DNA from: a bacterium
Lineage (GTDB): Bacteria; Patescibacteriota; Minisyncoccia; Phycocordibacterales; Zambryskibacteraceae
Assembly (NCBI GenBank): GCA_030649135.1
Contig: JAUSGI010000001.1
Location: 1-10,925, forward strand
Length of the DNA stretch: 10,925 nt
Direction of reading: 5' to 3'
Made by a program: the position numbers and the translations under genes. The notes below the pieces were generated by a model. It saw only the letters and a list, made by a program, of their open reading frames with translations, was not told where the DNA came from and ran no database searches. Positions 247 through 10,925 of the stretch are shown in pieces (position 1 is the first letter of the stretch; every line of letters begins with the position of its first letter).

Positions 247-253
247 GTTGAAG

Positions 254-326
254 TGCGCGCACTAGGGGTCGAACCTAGGACCTTTCGAGTATCAGTCGAA
301 TGCTCTACCAACTGAGCTATGCGCGC
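254..326 (-). tRNA. tRNA-Ile (anticodon GAT), 73 nt, CCA not encoded
   Basis: The reverse complement folds into a canonical cloverleaf. The acceptor is GCGCGCA/TGCGCGC and the D arm is GCTC-AGTTGGTA-GAGC. The anticodon stem is TTCGA/TCGAA with loop CTGATAC (U33, GAU, A37). The T arm is CTAGG-TTCGACC-CCTAG, and the discriminator is A. Confidence 0.9.
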
Positions 327-1815: not shown

Positions 1816-1844
1816 TTGACAATACCTTCTCTAAGGTGTATAAT
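1816..1844 (+). promoter_or_regulatory. Perfect consensus sigma70 promoter: TTGACA, 17-nt spacer, TATAAT, with TG immediately 5' of the -10
   Basis: TTGACA is at 1816-1821 and TATAAT at 1839-1844. The predicted TSS is at about 1851. Confidence 0.7.
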
Positions 1845-1891
1845 ACTAAGAGACGTAGAATTGGCCGAATTTCCGCTAAGGAGAGCTTAAA

Positions 1892-2236
1892 ATGCTCGCT
1901 TCCACGAAACCCAACAAGGTAAAGCTGTACCGGCATCCCGGACAGGTAACCTCGAGTCTGACTGTGCGCCGAATTCTCTTCGACTTCGAGAAGATGGGGG
2001 TTAAGTGTCTGAGTATCGAGGACGACATCGTGAAGGGGTGGTGCCGCAATCCGGCGACCTACCCGCAGGAATTCCGCGACAAGGTCCTCTACCTCGGGGG
2101 GAAGACCGAGGTTCGAGGAGGCTGCGAGTCGGTACCCTGCCTGACGTGGTTTCCAGGCCTGGTGTCCGAGAAGTGGCTGCCGCTCGATACCAAGATCGGA
2201 GACACGTTCGTTGTCGCTCGACTGGCATCGTTCTAG
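1892..2236 (+). CDS. Hypothetical 114-aa protein encoded in a GC-rich, compositionally foreign island; Cys-containing, no recognisable family
   Basis: A strong SD, AAGGAGAG at 1878-1885, lies 8 nt before ATG 1892, which is the first in-frame start after a TAA. Codon third positions are about 77% G/C while the region is about 58% GC. That period-3 bias argues for coding rather than ncRNA. The stop TAG at 2234-2236 comes just before the terminator. Confidence 0.7.
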   Translation: MLASTKPNKVKLYRHPGQVTSSLTVRRILFDFEKMGVKCLSIEDDIVKGWCRNPATYPQEFRDKVLYLGGKTEVRGGCESVPCLTWFPGLVSEKWLPLDTKIGDTFVVARLASF

Positions 2237-2246
2237 TTCTGCAGTT

Positions 2247-2290
2247 CGCCCGGCACCCACGCAAGTGAGTGCCGGGCGGTTTTGTTTTTT
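2247..2290 (+). terminator. Strong rho-independent terminator
   Basis: CGCCCGGCAC (2247-2256) pairs perfectly with GTGCCGGGCG (2269-2278) as a 10-bp stem with a 12-nt loop. GTTTTGTTTTTT follows. Confidence 0.85.
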
Positions 2291-2292
2291 GT

Positions 2293-2300
2293 TGTATAAT
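2293..2300 (+). promoter_or_regulatory. TGTATAAT extended -10-like element 7 nt upstream of the ATPase ATG; a leaderless configuration, and a direct repeat of 1837-1844
   Basis: The 8-mer is identical to the one in the consensus promoter at 1837-1844. There is no good -35 upstream, because that region is the terminator stem. Confidence 0.4.
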
Positions 2301-2307
2301 TAGCGCG

Positions 2308-3978
2308 ATGGCAGATTCGCCAAAAGACCAAGTAATATATTTTGCCGAGACAGACTCGCGTAATAACCGCAAGAAGTTTGGAATTAAGACCGAAGATCGC
2401 TCCAAACATGTCTATGTCATAGGTAAGACCGGCATGGGCAAGTCCACGCTTCTTGAGAACATGGCTATTCAGGATATTCAAAATGGCAACGGTATTGCTT
2501 TCATCGACCCTCATGGCGGTACGGCAGAAAAACTTTTGGATTTTGTGCCCAAAGAGCGCATCAAGGATGTGTTGTATTTCGCTCCTTTTGATACTGAATA
2601 TCCGGTTGCCTTTAACGTCATGGAAGATGTCGGCGCCAACAAACGGCATCTAGTAGTCAGCGGTCTTATGAGCGCCTTCATGAAGCTCTTCGGGGAAGAG
2701 AGTTTTTCCGACAGAATGCAGTACATTCTCCAGAATACCATTCTTGCTCTTCTTGAGTATCCCGGTTCGACCATGCTCGGTATCAATAAAATGCTCGTTG
2801 ATAAGGAATATCGAAAAAATGTAATAGCGAATATTACTGATCCGTCGGTTAAGGCCTATTGGACACAGGAATATGCCGGTTACACAGAACGTTTCGCCGC
2901 AGAAGCTATACCCGCCATTCAGAACAAGATAGGCCAGTTCACATCAAATCCACTCATCAGAAATATCATTGGTCAAGAGAAATCCAGTTTCAATCTTCGA
3001 AAAATCATGGACGAGAAGAAGATTGTAATCGTCAATCTTTCCAAAGGCCGCGTAGGTGAAGACAATGCCCGCCTGCTTGGCTCGATGTTAATTACCAAAA
3101 TATATCTGGCGGCCATGTCACGCGCCGACGAGCGCGCCTCCTCGCTTGCCAAGCTCCCGCCATTTTTTCTGTACGTAGACGAATTCCAATCATTTGCCGA
3201 CAAGTCCTTCGCCGATATTTTGTCGGAAGCTCGCAAATATAAACTCAACCTGACCATGGCTCATATGTATATAGAACAGATGGAAGAAGAAGTGCGCGAT
3301 GCCGTCTTCGGCAACGTCGGCACCATGATAGTCTTCCGCGTGGGGGCTTACGACGCCGATGTATTGGAAAAGGAATTTGCCCCGGTTTTTATTGCAGAGG
3401 ATTTGGTCAACTTGGGATTGCGCCAAATCTACCTCAAACTGATGATAGACTCGGTGGCATCGCCGCCATTCTCCGCCACCACCATGCCGCCAATGCAGTC
3501 TTCAGAGGTTTCCCACACGGAGGAAATTATAGAATATTCTCGCAAGACCTTCGCCCAGCCAAGAAGTGAGGTTGAGAAACGTATCACCGACTGGCATGAA
3601 GCAGGCCGAGTGGCGGTAAAGACCGCTCCGCCCAGAGTGTTTAGCGCGCCTCCGATAGTTAAACCACAGGAGAAAAGACCGATAGAGAAAGTAATCTTAC
3701 CTGTCATGCCCGCGCATGCAGGGCAGGTAGGGAGTAAAATAGAACCCAAACCGCTTCCAAGCATTTCTCTCGAAACTCTGAAAAAGAGCACTGATAATCA
3801 GCGCAAGCCGGACGCCAAGCATGTCGCTGACCTGCGAGATGCGCTCAGAGCCATGACAGGGAATCAGCCGAAGCTAGAGACACCACCCCAGCCTCAAGTA
3901 CAACCGGTACACCCCCAGCCGACCATAAAGAAGGAACCTAGTCAGGAAGAGCTCAAAAAAATCCTCGATGTCCAATAA
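2308..3978 (+). CDS. TraG/VirD4/TrwB-like (type IV coupling-protein-like) P-loop ATPase with no N-terminal TM segment and a Pro/Gln-rich disordered C-terminal tail
   Basis: Walker A is VIGKTGMGKST, followed by IAFIDPHGG. Walker B is FFLYVDEFQSF, then NVGTMIVFRVG. This pattern is typical of the VirD4/TraG/DUF87 ATPase family. The start is taken as ATG 2308 (MADSPKDQ...) rather than the track's GTG 2269, which lies inside the terminator hairpin. The stop TAA at 3976-3978 overlaps the next gene. Confidence 0.8.
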   Translation: MADSPKDQVIYFAETDSRNNRKKFGIKTEDRSKHVYVIGKTGMGKSTLLENMAIQDIQNGNGIAFIDPHGGTAEKLLDFVPKERIKDVLYFAPFDTEYPVAFNVMEDVGANKRHLVVSGLMSAFMKLFGEESFSDRMQYILQNTILALLEYPGSTMLGINKMLVDKEYRKNVIANITDPSVKAYWTQEYAGYTERFAAEAIPAIQNKIGQFTSNPLIRNIIGQEKSSFNLRKIMDEKKIVIVNLSKGRVGEDNARLLGSMLITKIYLAAMSRADERASSLAKLPPFFLYVDEFQSFADKSFADILSEARKYKLNLTMAHMYIEQMEEEVRDAVFGNVGTMIVFRVGAYDADVLEKEFAPVFIAEDLVNLGLRQIYLKLMIDSVASPPFSATTMPPMQSSEVSHTEEIIEYSRKTFAQPRSEVEKRITDWHEAGRVAVKTAPPRVFSAPPIVKPQEKRPIEKVILPVMPAHAGQVGSKIEPKPLPSISLETLKKSTDNQRKPDAKHVADLRDALRAMTGNQPKLETPPQPQVQPVHPQPTIKKEPSQEELKKILDVQ

Positions 3979-7196: not shown

Positions 7197-7443
7197 AACA
7201 GGGAAGCTGTGGATAAGTATAAGATATTAGAAATTAAATCAACATAGCCATAATAGTCATAAGAATGGGTCAATGCACATTATGAATATAATTATAAAGG
7301 TTTTTCTTAATAAAATTAAAATAGTTTATTAAGGTTTAATAATGTTTGTAAATCTTTCTACTCGGACTTAAAAAGCATAAGTTCACTACTTTTTGAGTCT
7401 TCATTCTATCCTTATTTTATAAGGCATTTTACCAATTTTTACT

Positions 7444-7452
7444 TGGTATAAT
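7444..7452 (+). promoter_or_regulatory. Extended -10 element TGGTATAAT (identical 9-mer to the one at 372-380), with a weak -35
   Basis: It lies at the end of a 275-bp region of about 75% AT. The predicted TSS at about 7459 falls just after an in-frame TAG (7456-7458) and 12 nt before the TTG start. Confidence 0.45.
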
Positions 7453-7470
7453 CATTAGACAACAAATAAT

Positions 7471-10400
7471 TTGAAAGCCCAAAGATTGCTAGCAACTGGA
7501 TTGAGCGGTTTTATAATCGGAATTTTGGTTCTCAGTTTTTTAGGGGTATCTTTAAATAAGGTTTTTGCGGCGGGACCACCCTCAATTTTGAGCTATCAAG
7601 GTCGCCTTACTAATGCTTCAGGAAGTCTTCTTGGTGGTTCATCCGGAACTACTTTCTATTTCAAATTTTCAATATGGAGTGCTGCTAGTGGCGGGGCAAA
7701 GCTCTGGCCAGCATCCGACCCGACATCTTATGGCATTACGGTCAGAGAAGGCGTATTCAATGTAAATATTGGCGACACTACGAATGGTTATCCAGATACG
7801 CTTAATTATGATTTCTCGACGAGCACGAATGTATTTTTAAAGGTTGAAGTTTCTGATGATGATGTTGATTTTGAAACTCTCACTCCGCGACAGCAAATCA
7901 ATTCTGTCGCTTTTGCTCAAGTGGCGGGGGCGGTAGTTAGTGCATCTTCCACCATCGCCAATCTCACTGGTACTAACGCCACTACTACCAATGCTACTTC
8001 CACAAATTTCTTTAGTACTACAGCATCTTCAACAAATCTTTTTTCTGCCGCCATAACTTCAGGCTCTGCTATCTTTGCGAATCTTTTGGTAACCAGCTCA
8101 TCAACGCTCCAAAATTTCACTTTCACAAATGCTACAGGAACTTCCGCTACTACGACCAATCTCTTCTCCACCACTGCATCATCTTCCAACTTATTCACGG
8201 CATTATTCAACGGCGCTGGGTTAGCCACTTGCCAATCGAACAACGTCCTCACCTGGTCTGGTGGTATTTTCGGTTGCGAAACGGACGACAACACCTTCGC
8301 ATGGACTCCCATCTCTTACGGTACTCAAAACGTAGTTGCGACATCGACCGGCCTCTGGCTCAAAGGCTCACCTCTAGGCTTAGTTGCTTCTTCTACTTTC
8401 GCCACTTACTCCACCTCGACCAATGCCACCTCGACTAACTTTTTCTCTACTATCGCTTCGTCTACCAGTCTTTTCACATCAGCTTTGACCGTGAATGGCT
8501 TCGCCTTCACGGTCAATGGCGCTCCCACTTTGAACGACTGGTTCGACCAGTCCCTTAAGATCTCGGACGGGCCCGCTTTTTCCACTATCGATACTGGCCA
8601 TGGGGGTAATGAGCTCTATGCTATGGACCAAAACGTTCGGATCTCCGACGACGTAATCTTCGACGAACTCTTGCTAACCGGTTCTTCCACTTTGAGAAAT
8701 TTCACCTTCTTAAACGCCACCGGCACTTCCGCTACTACCACTAACTTCTTCGCCACGAATGCAAGTTCGACAAATCTCTTTACTACTCGACTTGGCATTG
8801 GCACTTCAAACCCCAGCAGTGCTCTAGAAGTTAATGGTGATATTCGTATCACCGCGAATTCCGGAGGGCGTCTCTACTTTAGTGATAGTTCCACACAAAA
8901 TAGTGCAATCGTGTCGGGAAGTGGTATTACAAGTTGGAGCGACTTGAATTTTCAAACCGGCGGAATCATGAACTTCCAAACCGGTAATGGTCTCGGCACC
9001 GCTACCACTACTCATATGGTTTTGGCTAATAACGGTAATATCGGGATTGGTACCACAACCCCAGGCACCCCGCTTGCTGTCACCGGTGCCGGAGTATTTA
9101 CTGGGTTAGTGACGGCACCCTTTTTCAATGCCACTTCTACAACCGATGTTTCTAATTTCCAACAAGTTCTCGTCCTTGCTTCCTCCACTCTTCAAAACTT
9201 TACTTTCTTAAACGCCACCGGCACTTCTGCTACTACCACTAGCTTCTTTGCTACTGTTTTAAATGCTACTACTGCTTCCACCACTAATCTTTTAGTAACC
9301 AGCTCATCAACGCTCCAAAATTTCACTTTCACAAATGCTACAGGAACTTCCGCCACCACCACCAATCTTTTCTCCACCACCGCATCATCTTCCAACTTAT
9401 TCACAGCATTATTCAACGGTGCCGGTCTTGCCACCTGCCAAACCAACAACGTCCTCACCTGGTCTGGTGGTATTTTCGGTTGCGAAACGGACGACAACAC
9501 CTTCGCATGGACTCCCACCTCTTACGGTACTCAAAACGTAGTTGCGACATCGACCGGTTTATGGCTCAAAGGTTCGCCTCTAGGCTTAATTGCCTCTTCT
9601 ACTTTCGCCACTTACTCCACCTCGACCAATGCTACTTCTACTAATTTCTTTGCCACCACGGCTTCATCCACTAGTCTTTTCGCAGCGGTCTTATCATCAG
9701 GCTCCGCCACCCTCGGCGATCTTTTACTTAACAGCTCATCGACACTCCAAAACTTTACTTTCCTAAATGCTACTGGCACTAACGCTACCACTACCAATAT
9801 TTTCTCCACCACTGCTTCTTCTACTAATCTTTTCACCGCTCTTTTCAATGGCGCTGGTCTTGCTACCTGCCAGACCAACAACATGCTCACTTGGGCTGGA
9901 GGAACATTCGGTTGCGAGGTTGATAATGATACCTTCGAATGGACTCCCACCGCTTGGGGCAACTCTACTTCCACCACTCTCGGTTTCTCGCAAGGTTTCC
10001 TCTCTACCGCTTCTTCTACCATAGACTCCAACTTGATTATCACTGGTAACTCCACTACTACCAACGCCACCACTACCAATATTTTCTCCACCACCGCATC
10101 ATCAACCGGTCTTTTTGCAGCGGTTTTATCATCAGGCTCCGCCACCTTCGGCGATCTTTTAATAAATAGCTCATCGACACTCCAAAACTTTACTTTCTTA
10201 AATGCTACTGGCACTAACGCTACCACTACCAATATTTTCTCCACCACCGCATCCACCACTAACTTCTTTGGTGCTGACTTAACCCCATGTACTTCAAATA
10301 ACGTCTTGACTTGGACAGGGGGGAAGTTTGGCTGTGAAGCAGATGACACCGGTAGTGCCACCTTCGGCAAAGACTGGAACATCTTTACCGTTGGCCGGCT

Positions 10401-10925
10401 TGCCCCGACTACCACAGTGGCTGTTTATGTGGGAGCAACCACCACAGCCTCCCTTACCAACAACTCGTACTTCCAAGTGAATGCGACTTCCACTACTGGA
10501 GACTTAATCGTGGCTTCTTCCTCCCAGGACTTCACTGGCAACTTCTTAAGATTCCTCAATGCCGCTGGTGCAACTCTCTTCTCTGTTGATAATACCGGTT
10601 CTTTGATTGCCGCTTCCACTACTTTCACCAACGCTACCTCGACCAATCTCTTCTCCACCACCGCATCTTCATCGAACCTCTACACCGCTCTCTTTAATGG
10701 CGCCGGTCTTGCCACTTGCCAAACCAACAACGTCCTCACCTGGGCCGGTGGAGAGTTCGGTTGCGAAGCGGATGATAGCGGCAGCGCTGGCTTCGGCAAA
10801 ACTTTTGAAATGTCCAACACCAACTTCCTCGCTCCCACCACCACGGTCTCGGTGATTATCGGCTCCACCACCACCCCGGACAAAAGCGCTTTATTCCAAG
10901 TGAACGCCACCGGCACCACAGGTAA
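7471..10925 (+). CDS. Giant secreted Thr/Ser/Asn-rich tandem-repeat surface protein, 3'-partial (at least 1,151 codons; continues beyond the window)
   Basis: I translated the frame by hand from TTG 7471 (TTG 7486 is an alternative start) to the window end and found no stop codon. The N-terminus, KAQRLLATGLSGFIIGILVLSFLGVSLNKVFA|AG, is a signal peptide. The body consists of repeated modules S-T-L-Q-N-F-T-F-x-N-A-T-G-T-x-A-T-T-T-N-x-F-S-T-T-A-S-S-x-N-L-F followed by A-L-F-N-G-A-G-L-A-T-C-Q-T-N-N-V-L-T-W-x-G-G-x-F-G-C-E-x-D-D. The ORF track omits it because no stop lies in the window and the start is TTG. Confidence 0.85.
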   Translation, partial: MKAQRLLATGLSGFIIGILVLSFLGVSLNKVFAAGPPSILSYQGRLTNASGSLLGGSSGTTFYFKFSIWSAASGGAKLWPASDPTSYGITVREGVFNVNIGDTTNGYPDTLNYDFSTSTNVFLKVEVSDDDVDFETLTPRQQINSVAFAQVAGAVVSASSTIANLTGTNATTTNATSTNFFSTTASSTNLFSAAITSGSAIFANLLVTSSSTLQNFTFTNATGTSATTTNLFSTTASSSNLFTALFNGAGLATCQSNNVLTWSGGIFGCETDDNTFAWTPISYGTQNVVATSTGLWLKGSPLGLVASSTFATYSTSTNATSTNFFSTIASSTSLFTSALTVNGFAFTVNGAPTLNDWFDQSLKISDGPAFSTIDTGHGGNELYAMDQNVRISDDVIFDELLLTGSSTLRNFTFLNATGTSATTTNFFATNASSTNLFTTRLGIGTSNPSSALEVNGDIRITANSGGRLYFSDSSTQNSAIVSGSGITSWSDLNFQTGGIMNFQTGNGLGTATTTHMVLANNGNIGIGTTTPGTPLAVTGAGVFTGLVTAPFFNATSTTDVSNFQQVLVLASSTLQNFTFLNATGTSATTTSFFATVLNATTASTTNLLVTSSSTLQNFTFTNATGTSATTTNLFSTTASSSNLFTALFNGAGLATCQTNNVLTWSGGIFGCETDDNTFAWTPTSYGTQNVVATSTGLWLKGSPLGLIASSTFATYSTSTNATSTNFFATTASSTSLFAAVLSSGSATLGDLLLNSSSTLQNFTFLNATGTNATTTNIFSTTASSTNLFTALFNGAGLATCQTNNMLTWAGGTFGCEVDNDTFEWTPTAWGNSTSTTLGFSQGFLSTASSTIDSNLIITGNSTTTNATTTNIFSTTASSTGLFAAVLSSGSATFGDLLINSSSTLQNFTFLNATGTNATTTNIFSTTASTTNFFGADLTPCTSNNVLTWTGGKFGCEADDTGSATFGKDWNIFTVGRLAPTTTVAVYVGATTTASLTNNSYFQVNATSTTGDLIVASSSQDFTGNFLRFLNAAGATLFSVDNTGSLIAASTTFTNATSTNLFSTTASSSNLYTALFNGAGLATCQTNNVLTWAGGEFGCEADDSGSAGFGKTFEMSNTNFLAPTTTVSVIIGSTTTPDKSALFQVNATGTTG
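8083..8476 (+). repeat. Intragenic direct repeat, copy A (about 390 nt), paired with 9289..9682
   Basis: The offset is exactly 1206 nt with no indels. Roughly nine in ten nucleotides are identical by eye across the compared core (8091-8230 vs 9297-9436). Nearly all differences are synonymous third positions, and the proteins differ at only about 3 of roughly 118 residues. Confidence 0.8.
9289..9682 (+). repeat. Intragenic direct repeat, copy B, paired with 8083..8476
   Basis: See copy A. Confidence 0.8.

Follow-up and report, generated by a model that had tools for sequence, protein, structure and literature searches.

The 114-aa open reading frame (ORF) at positions 1892 to 2236 of a 10,925-nt stretch of bacterial DNA (the window, meaning this whole stretch) is a genuine monocistronic gene, and its product probably belongs to a family of C-type-lectin (CLec)-fold proteins that are targets of diversity-generating retroelements (DGRs) in ultra-small (CPR) bacteria; this copy has probably dropped out of diversification and likely acts as a binder of fixed specificity. 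In typical members of this family, a reverse transcriptase (RT) copies a template repeat (TR), introducing errors specifically at adenines, and the copy overwrites the final ∼40 codons of the gene, the variable region (VR). About 10 residues, which form the putative ligand-binding face, are randomized in this way. Both the window copy and its orthologue would have kept the scaffold and left the diversification cycle, such that the once-hypervariable positions would now be conserved under ordinary purifying selection. The protein most likely binds one fixed ligand via the formerly variable face.

Four features were assigned to the gene and its flanks.

1892..2236, plus strand: coding sequence for a 114-aa, single-domain protein with a predicted C-type-lectin fold (ATG at 1892, TAG at 2234-2236)
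1816..1844, plus strand: sigma-70-type promoter, TTGACA-17 nt-TATAAT, matching the consensus at 12/12 positions
1879..1884, plus strand: Shine-Dalgarno sequence AAGGAG, 7 to 8 nt before the ATG
2247..2291, plus strand: intrinsic-terminator-like hairpin, found by folding, with stem CGCCCGGCAC / GTGCCGGGCG (kept in the orthologous locus L001) and then a T-run

The sole orthologue found was located on L001, a 3.7-kb contig of a Parcubacteria MAG (assembly GCA_040900205.1). A search of 5.8 billion protein clusters through a k-mer index returned nothing beyond the protein and an 86-aa relative in this MAG, and no close orthologue other than that of L001 was detected in scans of genome contigs and metagenomes. 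The deposited L001 annotation (WD897_00930; 86 aa; 2565..2825) begins at an internal ATG. The frame at 2481..2825 has a GTG aligned to the window ATG, a conserved Shine-Dalgarno sequence, and 114 codons, and the tblastn match covers residues 5 to 114; the 86-aa annotation is a start-codon miscall. The frame of the gene was the only one open in both the window and L001, and the two ORFs were equal in length, at 114 codons each, without indels. Substitutions between them were 3-periodic, with 23/16/48 at the three codon positions (chi-square P = 6e-5). Values of ∼0.22 for dN/dS and ∼0.86 for dS were obtained, and these, like the conservation figures, describe one orthologue pair (window and L001) because the collections searched held one orthologue of the nondiversified subtype. 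Protein identity was 71%, in comparison to 74% for the DUF4015 protein and 65% for an 85-aa membrane protein, whose genes lie upstream in both loci in the same order (the 85-aa gene and then DUF4015). The shared frame, the dN/dS ratio, and an identity like that of the neighbors therefore indicated that the ORF is real, vertically inherited, and under purifying selection, and not the spurious frame that had been contemplated with the original prediction.

The expression signals were also conserved. Both promoter hexamers are kept in L001, where the spacer is 18 nt as opposed to 17 nt in the window; CTAAGGAG at the Shine-Dalgarno sequence is unchanged between the two; and the hexamers, the Shine-Dalgarno sequence, and the whole element align at the DNA level. 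Downstream of the stop codon, a GC-rich hairpin at 2247..2278 with a stem of 10 to 11 bp is followed by GTTTTGTTTTTTG, and the 70-nt flank containing this hairpin folds at -31.5 kcal/mol. The terminator was missed in a consensus scan solely because its loop exceeds 8 nt. From these signals we infer that the gene is probably transcribed strongly. The product is a basic protein of 12.9 kDa (pI 9.2; GRAVY, -0.13), and no transmembrane (TM) segment or signal peptide was evident from the GRAVY value, the N terminus, which is not hydrophobic, or the globular model described below. It is likely to be a soluble, cytoplasmic protein and apparently is not secreted. Its four cysteines are not conserved as a set: C51 and C78 were found in this copy alone, C39 recurs in 33 of 61 family sequences, and C83 recurs in 25 of 61; C78 occupies a hypervariable-equivalent position. 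The original prediction was accurate with regard to the ORF (coordinates, strand, quoted sequence, and four cysteines), the possession of its own promoter and terminator, and the lack of TM segments or a signal peptide.

The remainder of the window and the L001 contig had the following composition. A tRNA-Ile(GAT) gene (253..326, minus strand; the sole ARAGORN match) lies upstream of the 85-aa and DUF4015 genes of the window. The L001 locus lies just downstream of the 3' end of a 16S rRNA gene and a tRNA gene, with a LAGLIDADG ORF upstream (L001 1..900). The next gene in the window (2269..3978, plus strand) encodes a HerA/DUF87/TraD/VirD4-like P-loop ATPase that matches PADLOC mad8 (E = 3.8e-16). 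This ORF was listed from a GTG within the terminator hairpin and has an in-frame ATG at 2308; a TATAAT at 2295-2300 lies 7 nt before this ATG, which suggests a leaderless or very-short-leader transcript. An AT-rich gap (7200..7450; 27 to 29% GC) separates a glycosyltransferase cluster from a large repetitive ORF. The latter (7459..10923, plus strand) is one open frame of 1,155 aa that runs off the contig end and, because it has a hydrophobic N-terminal segment and internal repeats, probably encodes a large surface protein. Minus-strand ORFs at 7917-10919 are antisense shadows of this frame, in a region of strongly negative GC skew.

The protein had been described as having no recognizable family. 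This was correct for the curated libraries, as no match was obtained in Pfam, NCBIfam, PADLOC, or PHROGs and no Rfam match was obtained for the region, but did not hold for an exhaustive profile search. At E <= 1e-3, an hmmsearch of 1.84 billion representatives detected 47 proteins, of which P0003, a repetitive 1,745-aa protein with a six-stretch match, was discarded as spurious. This left ∼46 credible distant relatives, all of 100 to 190 aa except for two longer proteins. The window protein aligned end to end with the family profile (E = 4.5e-26) and shares the core ELYxHPxQ...LExHLxETGLIxRCxSLEDExVKGWxxNPxTYPEEFKxKxVxLWKS...VxCLxW..GxVxVxWxWL...W....PALLAS. W50 and Y57 are invariant in the family, and the near-invariant P54, P58, L68, L84, and W86 are present in the window protein. 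A near-invariant scaffold residue, Trp69, is replaced by G in the window and by P in L001, and the binding face may have been remodelled as a result. Full-length profile similarity and the core motif place the protein in an unnamed family of small CPR proteins of the CLec type; the host of the window gene belongs to the Parcubacteria group. No Pfam model matches any of the 61 family members, PHROGs returned nothing for three relatives, a PDB search by sequence gave chance-level matches only for both the window protein and the family profile, and the sequence gave no connection to any known CLec family. Searches of phage, plasmid, and viral collections detected no homologues. Family neighborhoods on long contigs consisted mostly of housekeeping genes, such as those for tRNA synthetases, PolA, and YceG. 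The protein itself did not match a housekeeping family, an outcome that would have spoken against the original prediction.

The link to known folds came from structure prediction. A 2-sequence alignment gave an AlphaFold2 model with a pLDDT of 39, which was replaced by a model from the 61-sequence alignment with a pLDDT of 82.9 (>90 over residues 41 to 100) and a pTM of 0.71. Structure matches of this model were almost all C-type lectin-like domains (CLEC12A, CD72, tetranectin, invasin, intimin, and others), on which the predicted model can be superposed. The AlphaFold and Foldseek check proposed with the original prediction thus gave a confident model and a consistent set of C-type lectin matches, although the Foldseek E-values did not reach significance; matches spanning the full length (TM-score, 0.45 to 0.53) were again C-type lectins. 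The window protein is therefore predicted to be a single minimal CLec-fold domain. The residues of the window protein equivalent to the hypervariable positions of its relatives (C78, S80, T85, F87, K94, L96, T100, G103, T105, and F106) fall at alternate positions on two predicted beta-strands and in the following loop, a placement that would be expected of a displayed binding face.

Evidence that this is a family of DGR targets was obtained from the relatives. The last ∼40 codons constitute a DGR VR in seven related loci, and a repeat search detected a second copy of the ∼120-nt 3' stretch of the family gene, 420 to 510 nt downstream, which is the TR. A TR was present in cis in five loci, in which the VR and TR differed as follows.

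L005: 16/16 mismatches at TR adenines; bAvd and an RT (RVT_1) adjoin
L006: 20/20 mismatches at TR adenines; an RT (RVT_1) adjoins
L004: 13/13 mismatches at TR adenines
L007: 14/16 mismatches at TR adenines
L011: 16/17 mismatches at TR adenines

Mismatches confined to template adenines, with a VR in the gene and a TR downstream, are the defining signature of a DGR. The TR copies were rich in AAC/AAT codons. A further VR, at 7222..7343 of L003 (protein P0056), was compared with the L005 TR (7861..7982) and exhibited 17 mismatches at adenines and none at other bases. The two loci are on different contigs of one assembly (GCA_964553285.1), and L003 is a remote target of the L005 DGR because it matches this TR with adenine-only mismatches. 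Locus L009 had no cis TR, yet the codon imprint described below was complete (10/10). No RT was called within 6 to 7 kb of the TR in L004, L007, or L011, so the RT can lie at a distance from a target and its TR. The VR/TR pairs and the remote target L003 therefore indicated that the family consists of DGR variable proteins of CPR/Patescibacteria. In L004 (7859..8060), L005 (7861..8030), L006 (7785..7960), L007 (1603..1790), and L011 (1199..1390), the TR is followed by a conserved motif, TCTTCATTTC, a GC-rich hairpin, and TTTTG. Two candidate elements were rejected: CCTTGG-type repeats downstream of some VRs, considered for target recognition, are absent from the remote target L003 and hence are not general, and the post-stop hairpin is uninformative as a DGR-specific cruciform because a terminator-like hairpin occurs at all of the loci.

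The window copy differed from these relatives in the features of diversification that were compared. The segment under comparison is as follows.

2105..2233, plus strand: VR-equivalent segment, residues ∼72 to 114, not diversified (codon alignment to the VR/TR pairs of L003 to L007 and L011)

No TR-like copy was detected in the 10.9-kb window or the 3.7-kb L001 contig with blastn-short or an adenine-tolerant scan, and no RT (RVT_1) or Avd gene was detected among the window ORFs scanned. All DGR-linked loci end the VR in CTCCTCGCAA(G/A)T or a near variant; this IMH-like sequence is absent from the window, which has GCTCGACTGGCATCG, and the element is degenerate in both the window and L001. A codon copied from an AAY template necessarily retains a pyrimidine at its third position (NNY). 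At the hypervariable-equivalent codons, NNY was observed in 9 or 10 of 10 in each of seven DGR-linked or imprinted loci (66/70 when pooled), compared with 4/10 in the window and 5/10 in L001 (Fisher P = 3.5e-6). The latter fractions equal the gene-wide background of ∼0.5, and A or G is the last base of six of the ten window codons (TCG, ACG, AAG, CTG, GGA, and ACG). Furthermore, the window and L001 share 8 of the 10 hypervariable-equivalent residues at a dS of ∼0.86; the two differences (TGC/CAC at residue 78 and ACC/GCC at residue 100) keep the third-position C in both copies. Nine of the 43 VR-equivalent codons carry synonymous-only changes, and amino-acid-changing codons are less frequent there (7/43) than upstream (27/71), making this the best-conserved part of the protein. 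Overall, the TR, the RT and Avd genes, the IMH, and the adenine imprint were all missing from the sequence examined, and the window copy appears, on these comparisons, not to be hypermutated.

The gene had been termed foreign in the original prediction. The GC content of the island around the ORF is 59%, compared with ∼45% in the surroundings, and the excess lies at synonymous sites, with a GC3 of 0.77 compared with 0.40 to 0.53 in the neighboring genes. A GC3 of 0.6 to 0.86 was found in every family member examined, compared with 0.2 to 0.6 in adjacent genes, in hosts of 37 to 49% GC. This excess spans the VR and non-VR parts of the genes and includes the nondiversified copies and L001. Because it is family-wide and persists across a dS of 0.86, it is no sign of recent transfer, and the DUF4015 synteny in two genomes and an identity of 71% like that of the neighbors were likewise at odds with a foreign gene. 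Avoidance of adenine was rejected as a cause because A3 and T3 are both depleted in the family genes. The family-wide GC3 may reflect an unrecognized nucleotide-level constraint tied to DGR biology.

The remainder of the original prediction, namely, that the gene is a horizontally acquired single-gene cargo encoding a toxin, antitoxin, defense, or antidefense factor, is highly improbable. In its favor are the small size and orphan-like character of the protein, the gene's own strong promoter and terminator, and the raised GC content, and it gains something from the mad8 match of the downstream ATPase and from a report that DGR-diversified CLec domains are conflict-system sensors in some bacteria (PMC10907252). 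Neither the protein nor its relatives matched PADLOC, Pfam, or PHROGs, however, and NCBIfam gave no toxin-antitoxin or antiphage defense assignment for the protein; there is no partner gene, and the downstream gene is not conserved. The gene in L001 at this position is a convergent Mur ligase gene, so that the upstream DUF4015 gene alone is conserved among the flanks and the location in front of an ATPase/glycosylation operon loses its meaning as context. The terminator, described as insulating, has a comparable GC-rich hairpin 3' of the stop codon at every family locus. Examination of homologue neighborhoods, another check proposed at the outset, yielded the housekeeping genes noted above and an RT in two loci; the link to ATPase and glycosyltransferase genes is not conserved. 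The family-wide GC3 excess and the lack of homologues in phage, plasmid, and viral collections also argue against such a cargo. An even smaller probability, extremely low, was given to the proposal that the GC-rich island is a structured noncoding or dual-function RNA in which the ORF is incidental. The 3-periodic substitutions, the dN/dS of 0.22, the single shared open frame, the conserved Shine-Dalgarno sequence and start, and a product with ∼46 credible homologues and a confident fold model all weigh against this proposal, as do the Rfam 15 results: no family was found at gathering or permissive thresholds, and terminator-hairpin look-alikes only were found at E <= 10. A consensus promoter and a terminator do bracket an island of 59% GC, both strands fold better than shuffled sequences (z, -2.9 and -4.6), and GC3 is enriched at synonymous sites. 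With nothing from Rfam and a strong coding signature, an RNA as the sole explanation was largely refuted; a secondary RNA-level role may exist.

Two further explanations accept the family assignment and differ in the present state of the gene. On the first, the window gene would be an active remote target on which a DGR outside the 10.9-kb contig acts in trans, its C-terminal ∼40 codons still being rewritten from time to time. Remote targets do occur in the family, as seen with L003 and the L005 TR on another contig, and L009 (NNY at 10/10 without a cis TR) and the TRs of L004, L007, and L011 without an RT within 6 to 7 kb are compatible with action at a distance; the differences at residues 78 and 100, with their third-position C, would also fit rare past DGR events. 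We consider this explanation unlikely, because AAY templates cannot give the six codons ending in A or G, because 8/10 residues are identical at a dS of ∼0.86, because the window has a degenerate form of the IMH-like 3' end that every DGR-linked locus conserves, and because the VR-equivalent region exhibits ordinary synonymous drift. It is very unlikely that the gene is a decaying relic, that is, a onetime DGR target, now without its retroelement and devoid of function, that is on its way by drift to becoming a pseudogene. An intact frame of identical length in two genomes, a dN/dS of 0.22, the conservation of the promoter, Shine-Dalgarno sequence, and terminator, and the position of the VR-equivalent region as the best-conserved part (7/43 versus 27/71 amino-acid-changing codons) do not fit with decay, even though the IMH, the NNY imprint, and the near-invariant Trp69 have been lost and the subtype is very rare in the collections searched.

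A CLec-fold DGR-target relative that is out of diversification and likely has a fixed specificity was hence the explanation that we favored. How this state arose is a separate matter. One possible history, which we propose tentatively and hold with less confidence than the main explanation, is that a lineage-specific CLec binder was drawn from a hypervariable pool because of what it bound and later became domesticated, with loss of the IMH and TR and with the face coming under purifying selection. If this "locked-in" history is true, the gene and its still-diversifying relatives would form a natural fixed-versus-variable pair for finding the ligands of CPR DGR targets, which are apparently intracellular. 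The conserved putative binding face of the nondiversified orthologue pair could in any case guide ligand hunting for these proteins. An orphan "hypothetical protein" has now been placed as a minimal domain with a predicted C-type-lectin fold in an unnamed, Pfam-less family of CPR DGR targets, and a false lead has been removed, since high GC content and a strong promoter are here no mark of a foreign defense or addiction gene. The family (∼60 sequences) is a compact resource that offers a confident model, clear VR/TR pairs, and one proven remote target. These results add little to the understanding of DGR mechanism, and their value is practical, mainly for annotation.

Several known systems were compared with the window protein. 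The CPR/Patescibacteria DGR variable proteins, described as clade 2 (Roux et al. 2021, PMC8144416) and as the "CPR set" (Wu et al. 2018, PMC5758913), have full-length homology to it. Targets of CPR DGRs are small and usually lack recognizable domains or TM segments, and what they do and where in the cell they act is still debated ground (PMC8144416); the smallest DGR targets comprise nothing but a CLec fold, and many of the VR classes from CPR have no classification (PMC5758913). The window protein is similarly small, has neither a TM segment nor a signal peptide, contains no known domain, and comes from the same host lineage. Unlike these targets, the window copy has no TR, RT, Avd, IMH, or adenine imprint, and its hypervariable-equivalent positions are conserved. 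A DGR variable protein with non-DGR homologues has been reported previously (PMC5006420). No sequence similarity to the window protein was detectable in the CLec-fold DGR proteins Mtd (1yu0), TvpA (2y3c), and AvpA (Handa et al. 2016, PMC5006420); the window protein is much smaller, a bare domain of 114 aa that lacks the inserts and the N-terminal domains seen in Mtd and TvpA, and has no FGE-sulfatase or DUF1566 signature. Identity to CLEC12A, CD72, tetranectin, the C-terminal domains of invasin and intimin, and the fibre tip of Bdellovibrio Bd2740 (8oks) was 6 to 12%, and no evidence was seen in the window protein for Ca2+- or carbohydrate-binding motifs or for the canonical disulfides of C-type lectin-like domains, C39 and C83 being the only cysteines that recur in the family.
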